Counted from the first letter of the stretch, positions 2,122 through 56,001 are shown. The stretch: DNA of 64,000 nt from Clostridia bacterium (GCA_017482055.1 JAFUOH010000003.1:14222-78221); one strand, 5' to 3'. Notes: generated by a model from the letters alone, not told the origin. Numbers and translations are program-made.

Positions 2122-2157
2122 ATATTGCCGAGGGCAAACGCTCTCGGCGATATTTTA
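2122..2157. terminator. Bidirectional rho-independent terminator between convergent genes
   Basis: Inverted repeat atattgccgag / ctcggcgatat (one G-T pair) flanked by an A-run on the left and a T-run on the right. It lies between the sigma stop (2117) and the uxaA stop (2160). Confidence 0.6.
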
Positions 2158-2159
2158 TG

Positions 2160-3530
2160 TTACAGCACGATTCCGTCCTTGAAAATGGAGATCTCGCGGT
2201 AATCGTTTTTCTCATTGGTGGTCTCCTTGCCCGAAGCAACGGAGATAATATAGTCGAAAAATTCCTCGGTCAGATCGTTTCCGTCAAGAATTGGGGAGGC
2301 ATCGAAGTCTATCCAGTTCTTCTTGACCGAAGCGAGGCGGGAATTGGTGGCAATCTTGACCGTAGGCACGGGGGCGCCTACAGGGGTGCCTCTGCCGGTG
2401 GTGAACAGCACCATGTGTACACCTGCCGCAGTGAGGTTGGTGATTGCGACGATATCGTTGCCGGGACCGTTCAAGAGTGACAGGCCGTTTTTCGACAGAG
2501 TGTCACCATAGTCAAGCACGTCCACCACCTCGGAAAGTCCGCCTTTTTGGATACAGCCGAGAGATTTTTCCTCAAGTGTGGTGATACCGCCCGCTTTATT
2601 GCCGGGAGAGGGATTTTCGTAGATCACTTGATCGTGTCTTGTGAAGTAGTCTTTAAAATCGTTAATAAGCGCCACTGTTTTGTCGAACAGCTCGCGTGTG
2701 CCGCAGCGCTTCATCAAAAGATGTTCCGCACCGAACATTTCGGGAACCTCGGTCAGCACACAGCTTCCTCCCAGGGAGATCAGCTTGTCGGAAAGTCTGC
2801 CCACAAGCGGATTTGCAGTGATGCCCGAAAAGCCGTCGCTGCCGCCGCATTTGAGTCCGAGCTTCAGCTTGGACACCGGGATGTGGACTCGTGTAAAGGT
2901 GTCGGCATATGCCTTTAATTCATCGATGAGCTTTACACCCTCGGCGATCTCATCATCAAAATCCTGACAGTTTAGGAACTTTACGCGCTTTTCGTTATAC
3001 GCGCCCAAAACCTTCTTAAATTCGCCGATGTTGTTATTCTCGCATCCGAGTCCAAGTACAAGTACGCCGCCCGCATTGGGATGGTTGACCAGACCCTTTA
3101 AAATGAGCTGCGTTTTTGCGTGGTCGTCGCCGAGCTGTGAGCAGCCGAAGGGGTGCTCAAATGCGTGTGCGCCCGTAAGCGCTGCGAGGCGCTTTGCAAC
3201 CTTGTTCACACATCCTACAGTGACGATTATCCAGACCTCATTGCGGATTCCAACATCTCCATTCTCGCGAACATAGCCCATGAAGGTCTTATCGGTGGGA
3301 ATGTGTACAGTTGGTGTATAATCGGGAGCGTATTCGTAGCTGATATTGCCCGAGAGGTTTGTTTTCATGTTGTGGCTGTGAACATGATCGCCGCATTTTA
3401 TATCCTCGGTAGCATGACCGATGGGGTTGCCGTATTTAATGATGTCCTCGCCCTTTTTAATATCCCGCAGCGCGTGCTTGTGACCGCTCGACAGATCGAC
3501 CTCGACATTGTCAAATTCGTGAATCCTCAT
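2160..3530 (-). CDS. uxaA: Altronate dehydratase (UxaA family, SAF N-terminal domain)
   Basis: 456-aa ORF with a GGAGGG RBS. The N-terminal SAF-like segment (ALRDIKKGEDIIKYGNPIGHATEDIKCGDHVHSHN) and the conserved core (GCENN, GLKCGGSDGFSGITANP, TGRGTP) are typical of UxaA/GarD-type dehydratases. Confidence 0.8.
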   Translation of the reverse strand: MRIHEFDNVEVDLSSGHKHALRDIKKGEDIIKYGNPIGHATEDIKCGDHVHSHNMKTNLSGNISYEYAPDYTPTVHIPTDKTFMGYVRENGDVGIRNEVWIIVTVGCVNKVAKRLAALTGAHAFEHPFGCSQLGDDHAKTQLILKGLVNHPNAGGVLVLGLGCENNNIGEFKKVLGAYNEKRVKFLNCQDFDDEIAEGVKLIDELKAYADTFTRVHIPVSKLKLGLKCGGSDGFSGITANPLVGRLSDKLISLGGSCVLTEVPEMFGAEHLLMKRCGTRELFDKTVALINDFKDYFTRHDQVIYENPSPGNKAGGITTLEEKSLGCIQKGGLSEVVDVLDYGDTLSKNGLSLLNGPGNDIVAITNLTAAGVHMVLFTTGRGTPVGAPVPTVKIATNSRLASVKKNWIDFDASPILDGNDLTEEFFDYIISVASGKETTNEKNDYREISIFKDGIVL

Positions 3531-3550
3531 TGTATGTTCCCTCCGATATC

Positions 3551-4837
3551 TTAAAGATACTTGGAAACTTCATCCGCGAGGAAAGAAAGATCCTCATCCC
3601 ACAGTGCCTTGTTTGCAAGGATGCTTTTAACGTCGGACTTTTTCATAAATTCCATTACCGCCGCGTCGTCATTCGGCATATCGGTCTTATAGAACGCGAT
3701 AAGCTTTGCAAAGGACATGATAAGGTTCTGCGGCATTTCTCCCTTGCGCTTGATGTATTCAAGCAGAGAGGGAAGCACACGAACCTTAAACTTGCTGACG
3801 GAGTTCAGCGATATAGAAGCGCAAAGATGTCTTATAAATGGGTTCTTGAAGCGCTCAAACACGTCGTCTGCGTAGTCAAGAAGCTCCTTTTCCGGAAGGT
3901 CAAGGGTGGGAATTATCTCCTCATACACACATTTCTTTACAAATGCGGACATTTTTTCGTTCTCCATGCAGTCGCCCACAGTCTCGATGCCTTCAAGCAT
4001 GGCGTAGGGGATCATAGAGGTGTGCGCACCGTTCAAGATGCGAACCTTGCGGGTTCTGTAGCGCTCAAGCTCGTCGGTGACGATTATATTGAGTCCGGCT
4101 TTATCGAACGGAAATTCCTTCACGATATCGCGGGGACCTTCGATGACCCAGAGATGGAACAGCTCACTGGTGTTAACCATGTTGTCCTCGTAGCCGAGGT
4201 CGATGACCTCATCCTTTGGGTAACCCGTAACGATACGGTCAACGAGGGTATTGCAGAATATGTTCTCACGCTCTACCCAGTTGGCAAACCCGTCGCCGAG
4301 CCCCCACAGCTTTGCGTAGTCGATTATGTACTTTTTAAGTGTGGAGCCGTTTTTGTCGATAAGCTCGCAGGGGAGAAAAATAAAACCGTGAAGTCCCAGA
4401 TCATATCGCTTTTTAAGCAACAGTGTTACCTTGGCGGGAAAGGTGACATTGGGAGCGTCCTCCGGCTTATCGTCGGCGGAAAACGCGATGCCCGCTTCGG
4501 TGGTGTTGGATACGATGAATCTGAAATCGGGATTTTCTGCAAGCTTGAGGTAAGCGGAAAAATCACGGTAAGGCTCAACACAACGGGAGATCACATCGAT
4601 TCGCTTTTTGTCAACGACGGGCTTACCATCGCGAAGCCCTCGCATGATGTGCGTGTACACGCAGTCCTGAGCCATCAGCTTATCGCACATACCCTTTTCG
4701 ATAGGCTGTACTATCACGACACTCGCATTGAAATCGGATGCTTCATTGGTGAGCTGTACTATCCAGTCAACGAAGCCGCGGAGAAATCCACCCTCGCCGA
4801 ATTGGATGATCTTTTCGATTCTTGTCGGTTTGTTCAT
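3551..4837 (-). CDS. uxaB: Tagaturonate reductase / altronate oxidoreductase (mannitol dehydrogenase family)
   Basis: 428-aa ORF with an AGAGG RBS. The N-terminal IQFGEGGFLRGFVDW motif and overall pattern are characteristic of UxaB. It ends 20 nt upstream of uxaA. Confidence 0.8.
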   Translation of the reverse strand: MNKPTRIEKIIQFGEGGFLRGFVDWIVQLTNEASDFNASVVIVQPIEKGMCDKLMAQDCVYTHIMRGLRDGKPVVDKKRIDVISRCVEPYRDFSAYLKLAENPDFRFIVSNTTEAGIAFSADDKPEDAPNVTFPAKVTLLLKKRYDLGLHGFIFLPCELIDKNGSTLKKYIIDYAKLWGLGDGFANWVERENIFCNTLVDRIVTGYPKDEVIDLGYEDNMVNTSELFHLWVIEGPRDIVKEFPFDKAGLNIIVTDELERYRTRKVRILNGAHTSMIPYAMLEGIETVGDCMENEKMSAFVKKCVYEEIIPTLDLPEKELLDYADDVFERFKNPFIRHLCASISLNSVSKFKVRVLPSLLEYIKRKGEMPQNLIMSFAKLIAFYKTDMPNDDAAVMEFMKKSDVKSILANKALWDEDLSFLADEVSKYL

Positions 4838-4910
4838 TAGTCTTTACCTCTTTTTTCTTAAATATATATACTACGATATATCGGCGGATGAACATACCGA
4901 CGGTATATCA

Positions 4911-5846
4911 TTATATATCGAACTGTGTCTTGTCAAGCTGCCAGTCTTCGCCCGCTCTGAAGGGCTTTCTGAATTTTTTCGTGAGCACGCCCTTTTGTTC
5001 AAGATGAATATAGCAGGCACGGTCACATGCCCTGCCGCAGATGGAGGAGCGGTAGGAATGCTTTGCGGGCGGATAGAAATAGGTGCTGTCCATTATCGAC
5101 TCGGCGGTCTCTCTGTCTGCCTTTACCTCGCCGTTTATGATCTCACGGCGGTTTTCAAAATCGCTGTACGCATTCGGAGGCATGAAAGGATTCTTTGCAC
5201 CGTTTGCGCCGTTATAGTAGACGGCACACTGCCAACGGTCGAGTTTTCCGCCGCTGGAAATCGCTTTACCGGGGCAGGCTTTGACACACTCTCCGCACTT
5301 GTCACAAAGGCTGTACTGCTCCTTCGGAGTAGGCTCTATCACCGCATCGGTCAGAATGAAGCAATAACGTATAAACGGACCGTATTCGCGGTTAATAATG
5401 CTTCCGCTGAGTCCGCGCTCGCCGATGCCGCATATCTCGGCAGTACGCTCGAAATCCATTTGCGCTTCGGGCACACCGCGCTTTATATCGGAATAGTCCA
5501 CCTCGGGATTTGTAGAATCAAGCTCGTTCATTATGGTCTGATGACGTCTTTGGGGAATGGCGATATAGTCCTCGTCCTCAAGCACCGATGCCGCACGCAG
5601 CATGGCAAAGGGCATTACCGTCTCTTCCAAGTTTTCCACGCCCATGGTGGTGTACTGATAATAGACCGTACCTTCCTCAACGCCGCGGTAAAGTCCGCGC
5701 AGTACGCGGAAACCGAGTGCAATGACGGTTTTTACTTCCGGGAATATCTTAAATATCGCATCATCCGAAGAAAACTCGGATGCACTTGTGAAGGTCACTA
5801 CATCGGCATCATGCTTTTTCGCGATAGCTGTTATCTTATCTCTCAT
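4911..5846 (-). CDS. RdhA/QueG-like double [4Fe-4S] protein, paralog C
   Basis: Internal ATG at 5846 has an AGAGGTG RBS and forms an ATGA overlap with the upstream stop. Motifs seen: INREYGPFIRYCFILTDA, CDKCGECVKACPG, WQCAVYY, CGRACDRAC. The track start at 5900 would overlap the upstream gene by 58 nt. Confidence 0.75.
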   Translation of the reverse strand: MRDKITAIAKKHDADVVTFTSASEFSSDDAIFKIFPEVKTVIALGFRVLRGLYRGVEEGTVYYQYTTMGVENLEETVMPFAMLRAASVLEDEDYIAIPQRRHQTIMNELDSTNPEVDYSDIKRGVPEAQMDFERTAEICGIGERGLSGSIINREYGPFIRYCFILTDAVIEPTPKEQYSLCDKCGECVKACPGKAISSGGKLDRWQCAVYYNGANGAKNPFMPPNAYSDFENRREIINGEVKADRETAESIMDSTYFYPPAKHSYRSSICGRACDRACYIHLEQKGVLTKKFRKPFRAGEDWQLDKTQFDI

Positions 5847-6745
5847 TTCGACACCTCTTTTCTGTGCTTTTCGCAGGCAAGCTCGCATTTCTTTGCACAT
5901 AAGCAGGGAACATATCCGAAATGGGTCGGTGGTAAGAAATTAAGCTTCGGATAAAGTGCTCTCGCGCTCTCTTTGTCAAAGCGCTTGGTGCCGTTTATGA
6001 TGTCCTCACGCTCGGGATCGTCCTTTAAGAAATCCTCGGTCATGAAGGGATTTGATTTGTGTGCGCCGCGGTAGTATACTGCGCACTGCCAGGTGTCAAC
6101 GCCGTCCTTCGATATGGCATTTCCGGGACATGCCTTGATGCACTCGCCGCAGCCATCGCACACCTCGCCTGTAAAGGGAGGATCGCATTCAAGCGGCGCA
6201 TCGGTCACGATGTACACAAATCGCAAAAACGTGCCGTATTCGGGGGTTATGACCTTGCCGTGGAGTCCGACCTTACCGAGTCCGCAGACCTCTGCGGCAA
6301 GATTTGTGTCGATTATTACCTCGGGGGCGGGCTTCCCGTCCTCAACGGGACTTGAAAACTCCAACTCGTATGTATCCTTTACCTCCGGATTGGTAGTAGG
6401 GTCACCTTTGACCTTCATGCCGGGGACATTGCGCTGCAGACAGGCATCGTAGCCCGCATTTTCTATAATTGCGCCGAGCTTTAAGAGAAAAATTTCCGCA
6501 AAGGTCTCGTCTATGTATTTTACGCCGAGACTGGTGTAAGTGTAATACTGATTCTTATTCTCCATCGCACGGTAAAGTCCCTTGGGAACTCGTATTGCAC
6601 AGCCAATAACGCATTTTGCGGCGGGGAGAATTGAAAACGGGTTATGGCGCGGATCTACATCACGGAAAAGCTCCGCGTCGCCGATACCGCACAGTACCGC
6701 GCCGAGCTCCAGCGCCTTTTCTTTTATAATTTTTGAAGTAAGCAT
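5843..6745 (-). CDS. RdhA/QueG-like double [4Fe-4S] protein, paralog B
   Basis: 300-aa ORF with an AAAGGA RBS inside the end of the cupin gene. Motifs seen: ITPEYGTFLRFVYIVTDAPLECD, CDGCGECIKACPGNA, WQCAVYY, CLCAKKCELAC. Confidence 0.8.
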   Translation of the reverse strand: MLTSKIIKEKALELGAVLCGIGDAELFRDVDPRHNPFSILPAAKCVIGCAIRVPKGLYRAMENKNQYYTYTSLGVKYIDETFAEIFLLKLGAIIENAGYDACLQRNVPGMKVKGDPTTNPEVKDTYELEFSSPVEDGKPAPEVIIDTNLAAEVCGLGKVGLHGKVITPEYGTFLRFVYIVTDAPLECDPPFTGEVCDGCGECIKACPGNAISKDGVDTWQCAVYYRGAHKSNPFMTEDFLKDDPEREDIINGTKRFDKESARALYPKLNFLPPTHFGYVPCLCAKKCELACEKHRKEVSK

Positions 6746-6746
6746 T

Positions 6747-7094
6747 TTATACGGTCATCCTTTCTGTATCTTCGGGGCGGAGTGCGGCGTTTTCCGCAAC
6801 TGCCAAAAAAGCGTCGCGGCTGATTGCAAGCGAATGCCACGTGGCTTTTTTCACACAGTAGACTTTGCCGTGCTCCATCGGTATCGCTTCGAGCGCTTTG
6901 CCGTCCTCCGTCGTGTAGAGGCAAGCCTCGCCGCGTACAAGCACAAACACCTCATCTGTGGTCATATGGCGGCTCAGCTTTTGATGGTTTTCTGCGCTGT
7001 ACTGCTCGGCGTATGTGATGGCGGCTATCTGCCAGCCCTCGGAACCGAAAAGCACGTCGAAGCCATCCTTTTGCGGAGTGTAAGCTTCTATCAT
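6747..7094 (-). CDS. Small cupin-like protein (about 115 aa)
   Basis: Start chosen at the ATG at 7094 (MIEAYTPQKDG...), which has a GGAGG RBS and an ATGA overlap with the upstream stop. The pattern HMTTDEVFVLVRGEACLY...KATWHSL looks like a small beta-barrel/cupin. The fold call is tentative. Confidence 0.6.
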   Translation of the reverse strand: MIEAYTPQKDGFDVLFGSEGWQIAAITYAEQYSAENHQKLSRHMTTDEVFVLVRGEACLYTTEDGKALEAIPMEHGKVYCVKKATWHSLAISRDAFLAVAENAALRPEDTERMTV

Positions 7095-8173
7095 CGGTCG
7101 AGCCTCCATGCCTTCTTTGTGCGAAGGGGTGCCTTGAAGCGACCTTCCATGCATCCGCCCTTCTTTTCGAGCATCGACACACAGGCGCGTATGCATCCGC
7201 CGCACTTTGCCATATTATAACCCACCCAGCTTGGAAAATACTTTTCAAGCGCAGTGTAGACCTTGACGACTTCCTTTTCATTTGCATCGTCGGTCACGCC
7301 CTCCAAAAGATCAAGGGTACCGTTTTCGTTTTTGTCAAAGACCTCTTTGGGTACAAAAGGATTGTAGTATCTGCCGCCGTGAGTGTAGAAGGCGTAACAG
7401 CGCCACATATCAATATCGCCCCACTCGCATTTTTTACCGTCGAGATCCACGGTGATCGTTTTGCCTGAGTTTATAGGCGGAATGCACCCACCGGGACATT
7501 CACGCACGCAGGCACCGCATTTTCTGCAAAGCGGCTCGCCGTTATACATCTCGTCGTACTCATCAAATTCCGCGTCGGTGAAGATAAACGCAACGCGCTG
7601 AAGCGGACCGAATTCTGGAGTCAGCAGCATCTTTGAGTAGCCGATCTCACCGAGTCCGCAGGCAACCGCCGCGAGTCTGAAATGAAACTGCAGATCCGGC
7701 GGCACTTTGCTTTCATCTACGGCACGAGTAAACTGTACGCTTCTGTGGTGCGCGGTCTTACCCTTGGCGTGCTTTGACACTTCTATCTGCTCCTCGGGGG
7801 AGAGGGAGTTGCCGGGAGAACCGTCCATATCGGATACAGCGCCGCGTGCGCCCGTGTTGCGGTAGATGAACGCCTCATAGCCCTCATCCTCGATAACGCG
7901 TCCCACATGGTGAAGCACTGCGGGAGCATAGATCTCGTTGATCCCGCCGTATGCCATGGATGGATACTGGTAGAACTGAGTACCCTCCTCTATACCGCGC
8001 TGTGTACCGCGCGGAATGCGGAACACAAAGCCGATGATGCTCTTTACTCCCGGAAAGAGGAAGTTAGGATCCATAACGTCGGGTGCGCCGCGCAGACGTG
8101 ATACGGGAGCGATACCGCAGGCATCTGCGCCCGCTTCCAGTGCGGCTTCTTTAATAAGCTTATTCTTTAGCAT
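7091..8173 (-). CDS. RdhA/QueG-like double [4Fe-4S] protein, paralog A (carries a ~60-aa insertion)
   Basis: 360-aa ORF with an AAGGAGG RBS. Motifs seen: LTPEFGPLQRVAFIFTDA, CRKCGACVRECPGG, WRCYAFY, CGGCIRAC. An extra segment (GARGAVSDMDGSPGN...PPDLQFHF) has no counterpart in paralogs B and C. Confidence 0.8.
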   Translation of the reverse strand: MLKNKLIKEAALEAGADACGIAPVSRLRGAPDVMDPNFLFPGVKSIIGFVFRIPRGTQRGIEEGTQFYQYPSMAYGGINEIYAPAVLHHVGRVIEDEGYEAFIYRNTGARGAVSDMDGSPGNSLSPEEQIEVSKHAKGKTAHHRSVQFTRAVDESKVPPDLQFHFRLAAVACGLGEIGYSKMLLTPEFGPLQRVAFIFTDAEFDEYDEMYNGEPLCRKCGACVRECPGGCIPPINSGKTITVDLDGKKCEWGDIDMWRCYAFYTHGGRYYNPFVPKEVFDKNENGTLDLLEGVTDDANEKEVVKVYTALEKYFPSWVGYNMAKCGGCIRACVSMLEKKGGCMEGRFKAPLRTKKAWRLDR

Positions 8174-8220
8174 ATACTGCCTCCTTTATATTATCTCATA
8201 TTACTTGGTTTGTGTCAATA

Positions 8221-9207
8221 CTAATTCGTGCCATTTTTTATGGGAAATGACCGTGTTTCAGAGTATACCAGCTTCTTTTCGCATATCGTGCCCGCAACGT
8301 CGCAGCCGGGAAAACCTGTAGGCTCAAACAGCGCGCTGTGGTTAGGTTCGAGCAGAGCGGTAAGATTTCCCGCCCACTTGCCTGTACAGTAGGCGCGGAG
8401 GATCTTTTCTGGCGCTTCGCTTACTCTTGTGGCAAGCTTCACATGGGTAAAATATTTTTCGTATAGGTGGATGTCCTCGGGCCGGACGAAGTTTGTGCAG
8501 TCAAGGAATCTTTTGCGGTTTCCTTCCTTCGAAAGAAAGCTCTTGCACACGCCCTCGAATGTGAAGGCGTTGTCCATTTTCACGATATCGTTTTCATGTG
8601 CCACCAAATTGTCATGGAACACATGGGCGGAGCAGTGGTTGAGACATCCGCTGTTGGCAAGCATGTGCAGGCGCTTGCCGTTTTCGCAGCACCAAGCCGT
8701 CAGCTCCTCTATTTTTGAAAAATCGCGGTTTAGCTCCCGCTTTAAATAAAAACCATCGAAGTGATCCGAGAGATATTCCATTCCCTCCACGGTGCCGATC
8801 TCCATATTTACGGAGGCGCGTACCGAGACACCCTCAAAATTGTTTTTTATGAATTTTGCGATTATTGGAGAGGTGGTGGTCACCGAATCTGTGCCGTAAG
8901 CCGATATGCAGTAGTCCAGCGTATCGCCGAGCTTATTATAAAATGCTCGCGACAGCGTATCCTCACCGTAGCACATGGCGTTGAGAAGCAGATTCATGGA
9001 AAAGCCGCATCCCGCAAGCTCGCGAAGCTCCGCATCCTGACGTACTGCGGCTTCGGCAGGTGAAAATCCGTCATTCCAGGAATCTCCTCTGCCATTCGGT
9101 ATACCGATGACCGAAAAATATATCTCACCGATCGAGTCACGGTATGTTTTTATTGCCTCCATAAAAGAGTCATTATCCGTCAGTCGGTATCCGACCGAAA
9201 ATTTCAT
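8221..9207 (-). CDS. Cys-rich protein, possibly peptidase-U32-like / TIM-barrel; first gene of the cluster
   Basis: 328-aa ORF with a GGAGGTG RBS. The N-terminus MKFSVGY...EIYFSVIGIPNGRG and the segment LANSGCLNHCSAHVFH resemble short U32-family (collagenase-like) proteins as I remember them. I cannot confirm the family assignment without an HMM search. Confidence 0.7.
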   Translation of the reverse strand: MKFSVGYRLTDNDSFMEAIKTYRDSIGEIYFSVIGIPNGRGDSWNDGFSPAEAAVRQDAELRELAGCGFSMNLLLNAMCYGEDTLSRAFYNKLGDTLDYCISAYGTDSVTTTSPIIAKFIKNNFEGVSVRASVNMEIGTVEGMEYLSDHFDGFYLKRELNRDFSKIEELTAWCCENGKRLHMLANSGCLNHCSAHVFHDNLVAHENDIVKMDNAFTFEGVCKSFLSKEGNRKRFLDCTNFVRPEDIHLYEKYFTHVKLATRVSEAPEKILRAYCTGKWAGNLTALLEPNHSALFEPTGFPGCDVAGTICEKKLVYSETRSFPIKNGTN

Positions 9208-43370: not shown

Positions 43371-46300
43371 ATGAAAAAAGCAAAATTAACAAAGATATTT
43401 GCCTGTGCTTTTATATGTGTGGCTGTGTTTTTTTCACTGCCGTGCCTTGCCGCCGATCCTGTGGATGAGGAAAAGTATATTATTGAGTCGTTTGACTATG
43501 AGGTCGGAGACTTCGATGCCGGTGAAAATGTAAAAAATGTTGCGCTTCAAAAGCTGTCAACCGACATTGACGGTACGGTTGATACCCGTTCCTGCCTTGA
43601 GGTTGTCGGAAGCTACAGCGATATCGGTGTTCTGCGCAGTACTGTGGCGAGCTTTTCGGAGGCTATTGATCTTACCGAATACCGAAAGGTGGCATATGAC
43701 ATATATGTGCCGATCTACGAAGCCGATCCCGAGGCGGTATATTACACAAGACTCACGCTCTTTTCTTCCGACGGAAGCAGTACCGAGAACCTTGTAAGTG
43801 TTGAGAGCGGACAGTGGTGCCATATCGAAGCCGATATCGGTACATGGGACAGCCGCGGCGATATAGTGTCGGCGGAGATCGCCTATGTGGTGGATACCGT
43901 ACATACCGGATATATGTGGAGCGGCTTTTATGTTGATGATATCTACGCTTATGACAAGGTAGACCGTGAGCTTGCCGCGAGGTTCCTATTTGACAAATTC
44001 GAGTCGGACGGAGCAAATGCCGCTTTGTCGCGCGACAATACCATGCTTACGCTCGTATCGGAGTCCTTTGACAGCTTCTCGCTGAGCGCGTCGGTATTTA
44101 TGCCCGAGACACAGTATGATGTTAACTGCTTGCGTATAAAGCTTGCCAACAATACGCCGAGTGATACACTGACATTGCATTATACAACATTTGACACTCA
44201 GGCAAACAGTGAGGATAAAACTGTCTCCATACCGATAGTGCCGATGTCGAAAGCGGATTATTATTACGCATATGTAGGTGATGCTTCCATGCTCCGCAGT
44301 ATTGAGCTGATATTTGACGAGGGCGGCGGAAGTGTTGAGATCTATTCATTGAGTGCTATCTCATCTTATAAGGCGGATGAATATGATGTGTGCGGCAGTG
44401 TAAATATATGTCGGCTTAACGATGACCTCACATCAGTCAACTTCTACGGCGAGATCAACCGTGAAGTGGCACTCGATCATCAGGACAGCAGGATTGCTAT
44501 ATATACATACGAAGCCGACACGCTTCCGACAGAGGATGAGCTTGCTGCCCTTGAACCTATCGTTACGGGCGATATGACAACACGCTTTGAGCTTAATTGG
44601 CAGATGCCCGCCGACAACCCTTATGCCTGCTACAGCCGATACCTTGCGGCGGTAGTCCATTCGGACGGCAGCTACACGCTTATCGCTCCGCCCTTCTATA
44701 TCGATAATCCGGGTCGCCGTGCCGATGACGGCAAAGGCTTTACATCGGATGTCAAAGGCTTTGCGGCGGATGATATCTCCCTTATCGGTGAGACCGACAG
44801 TGGGATAACACAGCTTACGCTGGATACACGACGTGCATTCACTTCGAAGGATGCGGGTGAGCAGTTCATTTACAACGGCTGTGTATATTATCTTAATTCC
44901 GAGTATCTCGGACAGCTTTCGAAGCAGATCTCTGTGCTTCATGGCAGTGGAGTGAGCGTGCTTCTGCGCTATTCCGGTTGGGATCGTGCATACAAAGACG
45001 AGCTGATGCTTGCGGATAGTACGAATATTACCGCAAACTATATAAATAATACGAACGCTTCTGCCGGAAGTGATTTCATAGGTGCGCTGAGTGCATATAC
45101 TGCGAAAACCTGGTGTGCTGACGGCAGTGTGGTGGGCGTGATCTTTGGTGAAGGTGAGAATATCATTCCCGTGGGTGAGACCTCGGTTTCCGAAATGATC
45201 GCATACACCGCAAGAGAGCTTTGCAAGATATATTTTAACCTTTCGTCGGCGAATTCCGAGGCGAAAGTGTACATTTCGGTAACGGATCTGTACGATACAG
45301 ATCCTGCCACAAATGTTCGTGAGCTTCCGCTTAATGAATATCTTCCCGCCTTTATTTCCGAAGCGGCGCAGTATGGTAATTACGGTTGGGAGATCGCTGT
45401 TGAGGTCATAGAGCGCGACAAAAGCTTTGAGGCGGATCGGATAACCGTCAACGACTGTGCGCGTCTGACGGAGCTGCTTTATGAGCTTGGCTGCAGTGAA
45501 AAGCATCTGATATTCTGTGACGGCACATATGCAGGCTCAACAGAGCGACTGAGTGCGCTTATAAAGCAGTATGTAGTCGGATATTATTCTGCATATTTTA
45601 ATGACAGCATTGATGCTTACATAGCCATAGCGGGAGAAAAAGCGGCATCCATTTCAGAAACGGTCAGATATATAGATACGACCGAAGCATCTGTCATCTC
45701 TGCGACCGCGCTTTTGACGCTCAGAATAGACAGTCTCGCCGATATTATAGACGGCTATGACGAAAGCAAGCTGCCTCGGCGCAGACTCAGCTATGCCGAA
45801 GCGCTTTATGAAGCACCGACAGGTATTAAGGGCGCGTATAATTACTTTGTTTTTGACAGCGCTTCAAATCTCGGCAGTGTAGAGGCAGGATATTACTGCG
45901 GTGACATGCAGATAGTGCGGGACGGCACCACTGCCATGTCGGTACAGCTCGACTCGAAACTGTACGGCGGCGAAGTCTCGGGCAACTGGCTTGGTATCAT
46001 GCACCGCTTTGAGTACACCGAAAATCTTGAACATACTCCCATAATCGCCGTGACCATGAGGATCGAAAATACAGTTCCTGCCGTTGTCTCGGAGGTGCCT
46101 GTGAAGCTGGTACTGCGCTCGGAGAATGAACGTTTTGAATCAATTGGTGAGCTCATAACCTCTGATTGGGTAACACTGTACTTTGATATCGGTGAATTTG
46201 GCGGTATTGAGGATACGGAAATGCTTCAGCTCCTTGTCGGTGACGGAGAGCTCGAGTCGGCAACGCTTCTGATAAAGGATATAAAGGGCTTGTCCCGCGA

Positions 46301-46478
46301 ATACAACGACGAATCCCTTGAAAGCGTTATTGCCGAGGAACGGCTCAAAAAGCGCACTCCCGATGAGGATTCCGGTTACAGCGCATATATTTGGGTTGGC
46401 GGAGCTGTGCTTGTGGTGGCAGCTACAATAATCATCGTGGCACTTCTCAGCCGCAAGAAGGGTGATGCGCGTGAGTAA
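43371..46478 (+). CDS. Large secreted, C-terminally membrane-anchored protein of unknown function
   Basis: 1035-aa ORF with a GGAGG RBS and the signal peptide MKKAKLTKIFACAFICVAVFFSLPCLAADP. A single C-terminal TM helix (AYIWVGGAVLVVAATIIIVALL) is followed by RKKGDARE. No catalytic motif recognised. Confidence 0.85.
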   Translation: MKKAKLTKIFACAFICVAVFFSLPCLAADPVDEEKYIIESFDYEVGDFDAGENVKNVALQKLSTDIDGTVDTRSCLEVVGSYSDIGVLRSTVASFSEAIDLTEYRKVAYDIYVPIYEADPEAVYYTRLTLFSSDGSSTENLVSVESGQWCHIEADIGTWDSRGDIVSAEIAYVVDTVHTGYMWSGFYVDDIYAYDKVDRELAARFLFDKFESDGANAALSRDNTMLTLVSESFDSFSLSASVFMPETQYDVNCLRIKLANNTPSDTLTLHYTTFDTQANSEDKTVSIPIVPMSKADYYYAYVGDASMLRSIELIFDEGGGSVEIYSLSAISSYKADEYDVCGSVNICRLNDDLTSVNFYGEINREVALDHQDSRIAIYTYEADTLPTEDELAALEPIVTGDMTTRFELNWQMPADNPYACYSRYLAAVVHSDGSYTLIAPPFYIDNPGRRADDGKGFTSDVKGFAADDISLIGETDSGITQLTLDTRRAFTSKDAGEQFIYNGCVYYLNSEYLGQLSKQISVLHGSGVSVLLRYSGWDRAYKDELMLADSTNITANYINNTNASAGSDFIGALSAYTAKTWCADGSVVGVIFGEGENIIPVGETSVSEMIAYTARELCKIYFNLSSANSEAKVYISVTDLYDTDPATNVRELPLNEYLPAFISEAAQYGNYGWEIAVEVIERDKSFEADRITVNDCARLTELLYELGCSEKHLIFCDGTYAGSTERLSALIKQYVVGYYSAYFNDSIDAYIAIAGEKAASISETVRYIDTTEASVISATALLTLRIDSLADIIDGYDESKLPRRRLSYAEALYEAPTGIKGAYNYFVFDSASNLGSVEAGYYCGDMQIVRDGTTAMSVQLDSKLYGGEVSGNWLGIMHRFEYTENLEHTPIIAVTMRIENTVPAVVSEVPVKLVLRSENERFESIGELITSDWVTLYFDIGEFGGIEDTEMLQLLVGDGELESATLLIKDIKGLSREYNDESLESVIAEERLKKRTPDEDSGYSAYIWVGGAVLVVAATIIIVALLSRKKGDARE

Positions 46479-51073: not shown

Positions 51074-51703
51074 ATGAAAATAAATTACCAAGCCGAGCTT
51101 GAAAAGGTGCTTTGCCAAATAAGTGCGGAAAATACTCCTCCGAAGCTGCTGCTTCACGCCTGCTGTGCGCCCTGTTCAAGCTATGTACTCGAATATCTGA
51201 CCGAATATTTTGATATCACGGTCTATTTTTACAATCCCAACATCACGGATGCAGCGGAATATAAAAAACGCGCCGAGGAGCTGTCGCGGCTCATATCTTT
51301 GATGCCGCATAAGAATTCTATCGGGCTTATAATATGCGATCACTCGCCTGAGTGCTTCTATGACATCACCCGCGGGCTTGAAAAATTACCTGAGGGCAGT
51401 GTGCGCTGCTTTGGCTGTTATAAACAGCGGCTGGATGCCACGGCGAGGTACATGAAGGATCATGTGGGCGACTATGACTATTTTGCCACCACGCTTACTG
51501 TCAGCCCGCATAAAAATGCCGCGAAGTTAAACGAGCTCGGTGCCGAGCTTGCGGACGAATACGGTGTCAAATATCTGCCATCGGACTTTAAAAAGCGAGA
51601 AGGCTATAAGCGCTCCATTGAGCTGTCGCGGGAGTATTCACTGTACCGTCAGGATTTCTGCGGCTGTGAATTTTCACGGGATTACAAGTATGGAAACAGT
51701 TGA
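51074..51703 (+). CDS. queH: Epoxyqueuosine reductase QueH (DUF208)
   Basis: 209-aa ORF with the LLLHACCAPCSSYV motif, FYNPNI and a C-terminal YRQDFCGC, characteristic of QueH. Confidence 0.8.
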   Translation: MKINYQAELEKVLCQISAENTPPKLLLHACCAPCSSYVLEYLTEYFDITVYFYNPNITDAAEYKKRAEELSRLISLMPHKNSIGLIICDHSPECFYDITRGLEKLPEGSVRCFGCYKQRLDATARYMKDHVGDYDYFATTLTVSPHKNAAKLNELGAELADEYGVKYLPSDFKKREGYKRSIELSREYSLYRQDFCGCEFSRDYKYGNS

Positions 51704-52455: not shown

Positions 52456-53613
52456 TCACATATACTTCTTGATATCGCCGCACTCGTCGAGAACTGCCAT
52501 GATCATATAGAAGCGCGGAATATGGAAGGGACCCTTGAAAATATTGCCCTTCAAGGTGTTGGAAACGGTGTTATCATAGTGGAGGTAGCCATACCATTCG
52601 CCGTGCTTGTCGTCAACAAAGTATTTGGAAACATATTCCTTAAGCTCCTCGTATACGGCGTTATACTTTTCGTCGCCGAACAGGATATATGCAAGACGTG
52701 ATGCGATCATAGCCTCGCACTGCGGCCACCACAGCTTCATATCCCATTCAAGCTGTACGGGAGGCTTACCATCAACGTCGGTGAAAGAGATAAAGCCGCC
52801 ATACTTCTTGTCAAGACCAAGGGGAAGGGTGATGTCGATGATATGCTTGCCTGTGTAGATGGCTTCCTTGTTGCCTGTCATGATACCCTCGAGCATAATA
52901 AACCATGCCATTTCCATGGAGTGACCGGGATTCACGATTCTGCCGGTGGGAGTGTCAACAAATTTTCCGTCGGTGCTGACGCTTTCCATAAGCGCCCTTT
53001 CGGTGAGCAGCCCGGACTTCATGAAGCTTTCAAGCGTCTCACAACCGATTTTTTCATATCTTGCACGATTTTCGGTATCCACCTCACGGAGTACCTGATT
53101 TGTGGAGAGCAGCATCATAATGGGAGAAAGTCCCACGGTTTTTACGGTTTCGGGGTTATACTTGGGCGTATTCTTGCGCACACCTTTGCAGCACTCGTAG
53201 AATACGTCGAAATATTTTCTCGCGTTTGCAAGCGCGCCCTTGTCGCCTGTTGCTTGGTAGTATTCCGCACAGCCGATAGCGGCGAAGCATTCGGAGAAGA
53301 AGTAGCGCCTCTTCTGAATCTCACGGCCGTCACGGGTGACGGTGAAAAACATTCTGCCGTCGGTGTCGGTACACTTCGGAAGAAAATCATAAATACACTT
53401 TGCCGCTTCAAGGTATTTCGGATTCTTGTCGATGAGGTTGTATGCCTTTGAAAATGTCCACAGCGCACGTCCCTGGAACCACACGCTCTTTTCCTCGCCG
53501 TACAGATTGCCCTCCTCGTCGAGACAGGTCATGATTCCGCCGTATTTCTTGTCGATGGCATCCTCAAGCCAAAAGGGCAGTATCTTTTCGATCAGATCAT
53601 TTCTGTAATTCAT
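52456..53613 (-). CDS. N-acylglucosamine 2-epimerase (AGE) family epimerase/isomerase, copy 1
   Basis: 385-aa ORF with an (alpha/alpha)6-barrel AGE pattern: ILPFWL, WFQGRALWTFSKAY, NPGHSMEMAWF, KLWWPQCEA and GEWYGYL. Confidence 0.85.
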   Translation of the reverse strand: MNYRNDLIEKILPFWLEDAIDKKYGGIMTCLDEEGNLYGEEKSVWFQGRALWTFSKAYNLIDKNPKYLEAAKCIYDFLPKCTDTDGRMFFTVTRDGREIQKRRYFFSECFAAIGCAEYYQATGDKGALANARKYFDVFYECCKGVRKNTPKYNPETVKTVGLSPIMMLLSTNQVLREVDTENRARYEKIGCETLESFMKSGLLTERALMESVSTDGKFVDTPTGRIVNPGHSMEMAWFIMLEGIMTGNKEAIYTGKHIIDITLPLGLDKKYGGFISFTDVDGKPPVQLEWDMKLWWPQCEAMIASRLAYILFGDEKYNAVYEELKEYVSKYFVDDKHGEWYGYLHYDNTVSNTLKGNIFKGPFHIPRFYMIMAVLDECGDIKKYM

Positions 53614-53632
53614 AGTGGTGCTCCTTTCGTTT

Positions 53633-54790
53633 TTACATGTATTTTGTTATATCTCCGCACTCGTCGAGCACGGTCATTATCATATAGAAGCGCGGGATGT
53701 GGAATGGACCCTTGAAAACGTTGCCCTTCAAGGTGTTCGCGACAGTATTATCGTAATGTAGATAACCGTACCACTCGCCGTGCTCCTTGTCTACGAAATG
53801 CTTTTCCACGTATTTAAGCAGCTCCTCGTAGATTTTTTTGTATTTTTCGTCCCCGAACATTATGTATGCAAGGCGCATGGCTATCAAGGTCTCGCACTGC
53901 GGCCACCACAGCTTCATATCCCATTCAAGCTGCATCGGGGGCTTGCCGTCAGCGTCGGTGAAGGCGATGATTCCGCCATGCTTTTTGTCAAGACCCAGAG
54001 GAAGGGTGATATCGATGATCTTCTTTGCGATCTCGATAGCTTCGCGATTATCCGTGAGAGCTCCCTCCATCATCATGAACCATGCCATCTCTAACGAGTG
54101 ACCGGGATTCACTATCCGTCCGTCGGGAGTGTCGCGGAATTCACCCTCCACGGACACGCTTTCAAGCAGCGCCTTGTCGGTGAGAAGCCCGGACGTCAAA
54201 AAGCTGTCAACGCACGCCTTGCAGATACCCGCATATCGCTCGCTGTACTCGGTGTCGATGGCACGCATTACCTGTGCTGTCCACAGCATACTCATAACCT
54301 CGGAAAGCCCATAGGTCTTTCGGGTCTCGGGGTTGTATTTCGGAGTAGTCGGATACTTACCCGTGTGCAGGTCGCAGACAAGGTTAAAATACTTTCTCGC
54401 GTTAAGAAGCGCGGTTTTATCACCGCTTGCCTTGTAATATTCCGCACAGCCCATGACTGCGAACTTCTCCGCACCGAAGTAACGTCGCTGCTGTATGACC
54501 CTGCCGTTGCGGGTCATGAGAAATGCCATTCTGCCGTCGGGAGCCGAGGTCCTTATGAGAAAATCGTAGATACGCTTTGCCGCATCGAGATATTTTGGGT
54601 TTTTGTCAATTAGGTTATACGCCTTAGAAAATGTCCACAGCGCACGTCCCTGGAACCATCCGCTCTTTTCCTCGCCGTAAACATTGCCTTCTCTGTCAAG
54701 GCAGGTAAAGATACCGCCCTCCTCGTTATCAATGGCGTTATCGAGCCAGAAAGGCAGGATATTTTCAATAAGATCCTTCTTAAAATTCAT
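53633..54790 (-). CDS. N-acylglucosamine 2-epimerase (AGE) family epimerase/isomerase, copy 2
   Basis: Start chosen at ATG 54790 (MNFKKDLIENILPFWL), which has an AAGGAG RBS. This gives 385 aa, colinear with copy 1. The track start at 54823 adds 11 residues. Confidence 0.85.
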   Translation of the reverse strand: MNFKKDLIENILPFWLDNAIDNEEGGIFTCLDREGNVYGEEKSGWFQGRALWTFSKAYNLIDKNPKYLDAAKRIYDFLIRTSAPDGRMAFLMTRNGRVIQQRRYFGAEKFAVMGCAEYYKASGDKTALLNARKYFNLVCDLHTGKYPTTPKYNPETRKTYGLSEVMSMLWTAQVMRAIDTEYSERYAGICKACVDSFLTSGLLTDKALLESVSVEGEFRDTPDGRIVNPGHSLEMAWFMMMEGALTDNREAIEIAKKIIDITLPLGLDKKHGGIIAFTDADGKPPMQLEWDMKLWWPQCETLIAMRLAYIMFGDEKYKKIYEELLKYVEKHFVDKEHGEWYGYLHYDNTVANTLKGNVFKGPFHIPRFYMIMTVLDECGDITKYM

Positions 54791-54918
54791 ACGAATACTC
54801 CTTACATAAACTATTTCCGACATATTATCGGATGCTTATATCTAATTATACCATGTATCACGGCTTTTGCACAGTGCGAAAATTGCTGTTTGACAGTACA
54901 TTTTTTGCTGTATTTTTA

Positions 54919-55785
54919 TTAAATGAGCTTTCGGTATTGTCCGGGTGTAATACCGTTTATCCGTTTGAAGAAGGTATTGAAATAATACTCGTTGGCAAAA
55001 CCCAACTGTTCACTTACGGCCTTTAATGACAATGTTTTGTCACGGAGCAGCTCTTCGGCATATTTGATCTTTTGCTTGTGGATATATGCAAGCAATGTCA
55101 TACCCGTATGGAGTTTGAACAGACGTCCCAGGTATTTTTCGTTGAAGTGACATTGGCGTGAGACTTCGCGGCAGGTGAGCATACGGTCGCGGTTATCGAG
55201 AATGTACGTACAGGCACGTTTAATAGCGGCTTCGCTACCCGCGTTAATGTCAACAGACATACCGCAGTGCTCGTTTATGCCGATACTGCGGCAGATATCG
55301 CAGATCAGGTCAAATATCCGTGTGCGGATTATGGCATGAGACAACAACCCTCCATACTCCGCTTCGCGCAAAATGTCCTCAAAGCGCGAAAGCATCATAT
55401 CGGAAAGCGCAAACCGCACAGAGGGCTTTGCAGACAGCTCACCGTAAAGCTCACTTTCCGCATCGGGTAGAAATGTCAGACTCAACCGTGCGCAGTCGGC
55501 GGATAACACCGTGTGGTGGACACCCGGGGTGCTCAACAGACATTCGCCCTCGCAAAGCGCATATTTCGTGCCGTCTCCAATTAAGTAACCTGATTTTCCC
55601 GACAGAATAAAATGTACTTCAAAGAAAGTGTGATGATGTATATTTTTTGTGATAAACGCGGGACGCTCGTGAGCAAGATGACAGGACAGCCAGTTTATGC
55701 TGATGTGACAGGGCTCGGTGAGCTCGCCGATTTTGAGCCCCGTCAAAAGGCGGGCGCGGCGGGGCGTAAGTGATGGAAGCAGCAT
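54919..55785 (-). CDS. AraC family transcriptional regulator (cupin sensor + HTH)
   Basis: Start chosen at ATG 55785, which has a GGAGGA RBS. The C-terminal double HTH is YILDNRDRMLTCREVSRQCHFNEKYLGRLFK...FANEYYFNTFFKRINGITPGQYR. Confidence 0.85.
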   Translation of the reverse strand: MLLPSLTPRRARLLTGLKIGELTEPCHISINWLSCHLAHERPAFITKNIHHHTFFEVHFILSGKSGYLIGDGTKYALCEGECLLSTPGVHHTVLSADCARLSLTFLPDAESELYGELSAKPSVRFALSDMMLSRFEDILREAEYGGLLSHAIIRTRIFDLICDICRSIGINEHCGMSVDINAGSEAAIKRACTYILDNRDRMLTCREVSRQCHFNEKYLGRLFKLHTGMTLLAYIHKQKIKYAEELLRDKTLSLKAVSEQLGFANEYYFNTFFKRINGITPGQYRKLI

Positions 55786-56001
55786 TATGTATCCTCCAAT
55801 AGCGGGTATAGGTATATTATACATTATCAAATCAGGATTATCAAGTGTCAAGTGTCAAATTTATAAAATTTTGTATCCGATTTGAATTGTAAAGTACCGC
55901 GTTAAATGTTAAAATATTTCCACATATCTCACCTTTTTGCTTTCGGAAAGGTGAAAAAATTATAATTTCTGATCGGAAGTCAGAAAGGAATATTTAATAC
56001 C

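Follow-up and report, generated by a model that had tools for sequence, protein, structure and literature searches.

Why should a bacterium already equipped with the epoxyqueuosine reductase QueH carry three divergent relatives of QueG and of the reductive dehalogenases (RdhA) in a single run of genes? This question is raised by a stretch of 64,000 nucleotides from a Clostridia bacterium (GCA_017482055.1 JAFUOH010000003.1:14222-78221), here called the window, in which the paralogs A, B and C are encoded on the minus strand between positions 4911 and 8173. A preliminary description made from the DNA sequence alone had regarded them as a translationally coupled set that is unlikely to duplicate a queuosine enzyme and that resembles a heteromer or a three-step relay. 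From comparison with related loci, it is on balance probable that these genes belong to one conserved cassette, U32L-A-(cupin)-B-C, for a multi-subunit redox enzyme that is located in the cytoplasm, does not depend on oxygen and acts on a compound derived from sugar, U32L denoting a U32-like protein.

The cassette begins one gene earlier than first outlined, with the U32L gene (328 aa, 8221-9207, minus strand as all genes of this run), and proceeds via paralog A (360 aa, 7091-8173), the cupin (115 aa, 6747-7094) and paralog B (300 aa, 5843-6745) to paralog C (311 aa, 4911-5846). The co-directional run then continues into a uxaB-type and a uxaA-type gene, resulting in seven genes that span 2160-9207. 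Hence, positions 4911-8173 hold four genes and not three, and the preliminary description mentioned neither the cupin, nor U32L, which is coupled to A in half of the loci, nor the carbohydrate context. The likely start of C is at 5846 (MRDK) rather than at 5900, placing its ATG on the stop codon of B in an ATGA overlap. An identical overlap is formed by the ATG of the cupin gene on the stop codon of A, and the distance from the cupin stop to the B start is 4 nt. The proposed translational coupling is thus evident at the B-C and A-cupin junctions.

BLASTP confirms three homologous open reading frames, with 31% identity between A and B over 332 aa (E 1.5e-45), 31% between A and C (E 2.6e-43) and 40% between B and C (E 3e-65), and the three proteins are clearly full-length homologs. 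Among the motifs originally ascribed to all of them, CxxCxxCxxxCP, W-x-C, NPF and TPE(F/Y)G...R...TDA are indeed shared, whereas the segment given as RG...EEGT-x-YYQY reads PKG...ENKNQYYTY in B. The distinct distal Cys clusters CGGCIRAC (A), CLCAKKCELAC (B) and CGRACDRAC (C) are present as described. The single insertion of about 60 aa attributed to A, however, is in fact spread over three places, namely a loop of about 16 aa in the N-terminal domain, a hairpin of about 18 aa in the ferredoxin part and a C-terminal tail of about 25 aa, the latter being also present in C.

Assignment of A, B and C to an established family was not achieved by standard models. Pfam recognizes only generic 4Fe-4S motifs, and the NCBIfam models for QueG (TIGR00276; A 22.9, B 50.9 and C 48.4 bits versus a cut-off of 200) and for reductive dehalogenases (RDH; TIGR02486; 34-49 bits versus a cut-off of 160) are matched only within about 60-120 residues around the first CxxCxxCxxxCP motif. 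Among sequences of the Protein Data Bank (PDB), B retrieves QueG (5d08, E 1e-8), PceA (4uqu, 1e-6) and NpRdhA (4e-4), and a profile built from 89 A/B/C sequences retrieves the RDH complex 8q4h, 5d08 and 4uqu at E-values from 4e-15 to 1e-13, with 8q4h ranking best (4e-15) and the matches covering the junction between the cobalamin and ferredoxin domains. An AlphaFold2 model of A (predicted local distance difference test score, pLDDT, 82.6; predicted template modeling score, pTM, 0.85) gave corresponding results, as the top 46 Foldseek matches in the PDB are all QueG, PceA, the RDH complex or NpRdhA (E 6e-8 to 4e-6), followed by CblD and CblC at 0.01-0.03. Foldseek and profile matches combined identify in A the nitroreductase-like cofactor domain plus 2x[4Fe-4S] ferredoxin domain by which class III cobalamin enzymes are recognized. 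In view of these fold matches and the sub-cut-off scores, A, B and C can be assigned to the class III cobalamin fold class, yet to neither the QueG nor the RdhA family. As judged from sequence and model, the three paralogs form an old clade of their own within the class III cobalamin/[4Fe-4S] superfamily that includes QueG and RdhA, the placement relative to these two being based on the family cut-off scores.

QueG (TIGR00276; 5d08, 5t8y and 5d6s) is the best sequence and fold match and has in common with A, B and C the nitroreductase-like cofactor domain, a 4+1+3 arrangement of Cys residues and a cytoplasmic location without signal peptide, while identity is only 13-17%. In QueG, the ferredoxin domain is followed by a HEAT-like tRNA-binding domain of about 130 aa (PMC5175355). 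A, B and C lack it, as they end 29, 9 and 33 residues, respectively, after the last cluster Cys, which leaves no room for such a domain; the C-terminus of the A model consists of one helix and subsequent coil. Also unlike QueG, they occur as three obligate paralogs with a U32-like partner and a sugar-type regulator, and they possess invariant residues of their own (C172, NPE and NPF). With RdhA (PceA 4uqu, RDH complex 8q4h and catabolic NpRdhA 4ras/6zxu; TIGR02486), the proteins share the fold class and the 'GLGE.G....TPEFGP..R....TD' junction ahead of the first CxxCxxCxxxCP motif. In contrast to RdhA (TIGR02486/PF13486), they stay below the family cut-off and lack a twin-arginine translocation (TAT) signal, an RdhB anchor gene and a fused NAD(P)H reductase module, the Tyr/Arg/Lys arrangement of the RdhA active site is not recognizable, and the genomic context is carbohydrate instead of organohalide. 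Specifically, neither a twin-arginine motif nor a hydrophobic stretch was found in the N-termini of A, B and C (MLKNKLIKEAA, MLTSKIIKEKA and MRDKITAIAK, respectively), and a gene for an rdhB-like small membrane protein is missing from the cassette at every locus examined. Most likely, A, B and C are cytoplasmic and oxygen-independent.

The eight Cys residues predicted to bind the Fe-S clusters (216, 219, 222 and 226, 259, and 324, 327 and 331 in A) are invariant in all 89 A/B/C sequences. In their 4+1+3 arrangement, they correspond to the residues ligating both [4Fe-4S] clusters of QueG, established for StQueG as C184, 187, 190 and 194, C210, and C236, 239 and 243 (PMC4646009). Altogether, 25 invariant columns are kept by all three paralogs, including Y70, an acidic residue at 160, C172, NPE, NPF and the eight Fe-S Cys. 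Hence, reduction to a simple ferredoxin has not occurred in any of the three. The invariant Y70 is located at the N-terminus of a long helix in the A model, where QueG has its D-Y-H motif; this motif is replaced by (F/Y)YQY, so that the Tyr is kept without the Asp and His. The D/E160 position, conserved in the A, B and C groups, aligns one position off Asp134 of BsQueG, and R166 aligns with BsQueG Arg141, a residue sitting under the corrin (PMC5175355). R166 is invariant in 34 of 34 A orthologs, whereas B shows G/N and C shows L/E at this position. By alignment, A would accordingly differ from B and C at one corrinoid-relevant position. Specific to the family and invariant across all three paralogs are C172, NPE, W257, Y263 and NPF, with C172 lying within A-x-x-C-G-L-G where the aligned QueG and PceA sequences carry Ala.

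Scanning one genome per species revealed 37 cassette loci, all from gut or rumen metagenome-assembled genomes and distributed over three phyla, with Clostridia (Oscillospiraceae, Lachnospiraceae, Christensenellaceae and Acutalibacteraceae) as hosts besides one member of the Opitutales and one of the Lentisphaeria. On all contigs of sufficient length, the genes are arranged as U32L-A-(cupin)-B-C. Of 33 B-C junctions, 22 overlap and 31 lie within 20 nt, and for U32L and A the corresponding values are 15 and 23 of 30. The cupin gene is found between A and B in only 9 of the 37 loci and overlaps A in each of these nine, all accordingly within 20 nt. Direct A-B junctions never overlap, with gaps of 1-130 nt, mostly 10-20, and 19 of 26 within 20 nt. 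Identity to the window proteins is highest for A (74-89% across 34 genomes, with an outlier at 59% in locus L040) and lower for B (59-74%), C (53-70%) and U32L (45-57%). In the maximum-likelihood tree, A, B and C each form a clade with 100/100 support on long stems, and B and C are sisters (99/94). A two-paralog state is found on an environmental metagenome contig (L077:4023-7026), where U32L is accompanied by a sister of A and by a paralog branching before the B/C split, which, judged by sequence, resembles an intermediate stage of evolution. Next to this two-paralog cassette lie genes for an IclR regulator and for a relative with three fused domains. From the well-supported clades, their long stems and the L077 state it follows that the copies are old and differentially constrained; the former view of diverged copies, in place of recent duplicates, was therefore appropriate.

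Beyond the gut loci, a profile search of 1.8 billion representative proteins with A/B/C yielded 200 clusters (50% identity) at E < 1e-30 and 1285 at E < 1e-10. For B by itself, homologs fall into about 2000 clusters at 90% identity. Many relatives are proteins of 750-800 aa in which the domain is repeated three times in tandem, the middle copy being without Fe-S motif. In a scan of metagenomes, the single fused query P0154 gave no match, and an alignment used as query found relatives. In the 80 environmental loci, the fusions are typically preceded by an IclR regulator (16 loci) and followed by one or two single-domain paralogs, and have genes for GFO_IDH_MocA and PF12831 proteins, LacI, ROK and AraC regulators and sugar permeases of the ATP-binding cassette (ABC) type as neighbors. 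Consequently, the triplet organization and the carbohydrate context are general to this branch. Strong U32L homologs (E 1e-74 to 1e-126) are encoded in 5 of about 69 environmental loci. The fused relatives P0154, P0173, P0175, P0186 and P0196 (loci L042-L098) reach 75-126 bits with the RDH model, below its cut-off, and are unnamed. In P0122 (461 aa), a B-like protein runs in frame into the N-terminal part of a C-like protein; this is either a genuine fusion of B and C or the result of a frameshift where the ATGA junction normally lies. The idea that the fused relatives bear one Arg-containing domain per triplet was checked as well; the outcome was mixed, with the Arg usually in domain 3 and in about one third in domain 1, and is not used as support here.

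Around the gut and rumen cassettes, a divergent AraC-family regulator is encoded upstream in 30 of 41 loci. Among 126 flanking genes, those for GFO_IDH_MocA proteins (7), DUF5696/GH101-like proteins (5) and PF12831 oxidoreductases with flavin adenine dinucleotide (4) recur, besides GH3 (3), beta-lactamase-like hydrolases (3) and GH4 (2). The DUF5696 (GH101-like) gene is located within or just before the cassette in some genomes (L015:6880-8607 and L030:1916-3673), in L015 between U32L and A. A literature search on DUF5696 revealed no mention of it, and searches on QueG-like proteins, the RdhA superfamily and U32 proteins together with QueG or RdhA found no paper on the cassette.

The lead gene product U32L, encoded upstream of A in 33 related loci, gave no match to Pfam or NCBIfam models at E 0.01 or better, PF01136 included, and its profile finds the U32 peptidase Mk0906 (5d88) among PDB sequences only at E 2.3. 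Nevertheless, Mk0906 is the best PDB fold match of the AlphaFold2 model (pLDDT 88.5), at E 2.4e-10 and TMt 0.67 in Foldseek, with other triosephosphate isomerase (TIM) barrels trailing at 1.5e-4 or worse, about six orders of magnitude behind. U32L is hence a distant TIM-barrel protein of U32 type. In a 32-sequence alignment, C79, C188, C192 and C221 are invariant, spaced as C-x108-C-x3-C-x28-C, and could hold a [4Fe-4S] cluster. Known U32 motifs are CX6CX15CX3/4C in the canonical form and CXnCX12CX3C in UbiV (PMC6747719, PMC11574389). Like the U32 'oxidases' UbiU/UbiV, TrhP and RlhA as well as Mk0906, U32L combines a TIM-barrel fold with four invariant Cys; unlike these, it does not match PF01136, has the Cys spacing given above (motifs in PMC6747719) and is associated with RdhA/QueG-like proteins instead of UbiT, with no evident link to a prephenate, quinone or RNA substrate. 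UbiU/UbiV is itself a heteromer of paralogs. The U32L family comprises at least 4925 clusters at 90% identity, and all names shown among its best 120 matches are 'hypothetical protein'. The cupin is matched weakly by the WbuC family (21 bits), and its best PDB match is the uncharacterized CA_C3497 (3d0j, E 2.6e-6).

Taken together, the conserved order in 37 loci, the B-C and U32L-A overlaps and the three-domain fusions support a single unit. In the favored cassette reading, A, B and C would each contribute two [4Fe-4S] clusters of QueG type besides a nitroreductase-like cofactor domain and would most likely assemble 1:1:1, giving up to six clusters. Low-potential electrons might be delivered by ferredoxin or a comparable donor. 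A base-off corrinoid is probably bound by A at least, since A is the slowest-evolving copy and the sole one with an invariant Arg at the QueG Arg141 position. The substrate of the assembly would then be a small molecule of sugar origin that neighboring glycoside-processing enzymes release, and one of its C-O or C-X bonds would be cleaved reductively, with the U32-like Fe-S barrel as fourth subunit or coupled step, and in most genomes the divergent AraC regulator would switch the cassette on. By analogy, CblC-CblD (MMACHC-MMADHC) may serve as a precedent for heteromers of paralogs with nitroreductase-like fold, in which only one partner binds B12 catalytically; the similarity to A, B and C is weak, and CblC-CblD differs in having no ferredoxin domain, in being eukaryotic and in its role in cofactor processing. 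A more specific version, to which only tentative credence is given, describes U32L-A-B-C as a four-subunit metalloenzyme of an as yet undescribed kind, in which a class III B12-type heterotrimer, equipped with as many as six [4Fe-4S] clusters and between one and three corrinoids, would join a U32-type Fe-S barrel. In gut anaerobes, this enzyme would carry out a reductive C-O cleavage by which a metabolite derived from a sugar or glycoside is deoxygenated or dehydroxylated.

Several observations argue against the favored cassette reading. The template modeling (TM) scores of the A model to class III enzymes are only about 0.4, and the residue equivalences with QueG were obtained by hidden Markov model alignment and topology, not by superposition. 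The invariance of C172 could reflect a cofactor arranged differently. Since no pocket invariant is lost in B and C, these two need not be mere electron-transfer subunits. Genes for cobalamin uptake or synthesis were found neither in the window nor among the 126 flanking genes of related loci, and Rfam gave no match in the window, which hence bears no B12 riboswitch; none lies among these flanking genes either. What points to an A:B:C complex is the gene arrangement only. The flanking genes beyond AraC differ between genomes and yield no pathway. Finally, a search of sequencing runs located the stretch in only four gut-metagenome runs, all of them DNA and none RNA.

The rival explanation surviving best, albeit considered unlikely, assumes three independent monomeric reductases that differ in substrate specificity, either held together merely by co-regulation like the multiple rdhA of organohalide respirers or acting as a relay of three successive steps on one substrate without complex formation. 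All 25 invariant columns, including the eight Fe-S Cys, are retained in A, B and C, so that each looks able to bind cofactors and to catalyze a reaction, and QueG and NpRdhA act as monomers (PMC5175355). Because the cofactor and pocket invariants are complete in all three copies, the heteromer is no more than the likelier of the two options, heteromer and three-step relay, named in the preliminary description. Strict 1:1:1 co-occurrence in fixed order and frequent B-C overlap across three phyla, however, are not what independent enzymes would suggest, and homologs exist as three-domain fusions. In dehalogenating bacteria, the number of rdhA paralogs varies and each is accompanied by its own rdhB. 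Moreover, the conservation of A well above that of B and C, together with the Arg166 restricted to A, indicates a division of labor. The heteromer is therefore preferred as the better reading.

Slightly less probable still is that the RdhA/QueG scaffold is used without corrinoid, the N-terminal domain having a flavin, as in the ancestral nitroreductase fold, or an extra metal site at C172 instead, and that the trio represents a six-cluster electron module for a catalytic U32L. In line with this, C172 is invariant and family-specific, neither B12-related neighbors nor a riboswitch were detected in the window and related loci, the structural similarity is modest (TM about 0.4) and U32L is often coupled to A. 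Besides, little is known about the electron partners of U32 enzymes, which are themselves Fe-S proteins (PMC11574389). On the other hand, conservation with QueG and RdhA is highest at the junction of cofactor and ferredoxin domains, which is retained in all three copies and is the sole part common to the functionally unrelated QueG and RdhA. A Tyr and an acidic residue at QueG active-site positions would be needless in a pure electron-transfer module. Furthermore, A is far more conserved than U32L (74-89% versus 45-57%), and many environmental relatives have no U32L nearby, given its presence in 5 of about 69 loci.

Additional epoxyqueuosine reductases or another system for nucleic-acid modification are highly improbable, notwithstanding QueG as best PDB sequence match (5d08, E 1e-8) and the label 'epoxyqueuosine reductase QueG' given to B orthologs in some sources, as the TIGR00276 scores of 23-51 bits fall far short of 200, the HEAT domain of about 130 aa (PMC5175355) cannot be accommodated, DYH is replaced by (F/Y)YQY, regulators and neighbors are typical of sugar catabolism and QueH, the non-orthologous epoxyqueuosine reductase, is already encoded outside the cassette by a genuine queH gene on the plus strand (51074-51703; PF02677, 213.7 bits versus a cut-off of 23.5, E 2.6e-63), so that the initial rejection of redundant QueG copies holds.

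To our knowledge, class III cobalamin enzymes are known to catalyze only two reactions, namely reductive dehalogenation and the reduction of epoxyqueuosine, each by means of a single catalytic subunit. If the four-subunit metalloenzyme proposed above is correct, it would add a third reaction class, and the environmental relatives with three fused domains would represent a single-chain version of it that serves sugar catabolism outside the gut. The cassette defines a large unnamed branch of the superfamily, which occurs as obligate triplets or three-domain fusions in gut, rumen and environmental anaerobes and is tied to carbohydrate regulators and enzymes. Identification of the substrate would probably reveal a new anaerobic reaction in the breakdown of glycans or plant glycosides, would add a cobamide-dependent function explaining B12 demand in gut communities and would provide the first functional partner of a U32-type Fe-S protein outside quinone and RNA hydroxylation.

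Downstream of the cassette, the uxaB-type gene for a tagaturonate reductase (428 aa, 3551-4837, minus strand; NF002969, 547 bits versus a cut-off of 359) starts 73 nt after C in the same direction, with no terminator-like site seen in between. It is followed by the uxaA-type gene for an altronate/galactarate-family dehydratase (456 aa, 2160-3530, minus strand; PF20629 and PF04295), which ends the co-directional run, and a terminator-like hairpin with T-run is located 3' of it at 2137..2125 on the minus strand. Among the related loci, this combination is shared only with L003, where the cassette is separated from uxaB/uxaA by a GH4 gene and a second AraC gene. Within the window, uxaB and uxaA are not accompanied by uxaC, kdgK, kdgA or a transporter gene. 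The 47-nt gap between U32L and A is occupied by a near-consensus sigma-70-like promoter match with extended -10 element (TTGACA-17-TG-GATAAT, 11 of 12, 8190-8218, minus strand), the assignment being by consensus only. The AraC regulator usual in related cassettes is absent from this locus, and an ABC exporter is the divergent neighbor. Given the missing regulator and the promoter-like site ahead of A, the genes A-cupin-B-C may here be expressed separately. Remnants of the AraC regulator or of the usual accessory genes were not found within the window. The only AraC gene of the window, at 54919-55851, was considered as relocated cassette regulator and dismissed, since the similarity is confined to the helix-turn-helix domain (31% over 84 aa). 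Plasmids searched for relatives of A gave none.

Elsewhere in the window, 450-2117 encodes a sigma-70 family protein with regions 2 and 4 in the first approximately 160 residues, followed by about 390 residues without family match, and a 1035-aa protein (43371-46478) shows a weak match to DUF5722 (47 bits) as sole family match. The minus-strand region 52456-55851 comprises two tandem paralogs resembling N-acyl-D-glucosamine 2-epimerase, both at about 291 bits and below the cut-off of 600, which adjoin an AraC-family regulator unrelated to that of the cassette.

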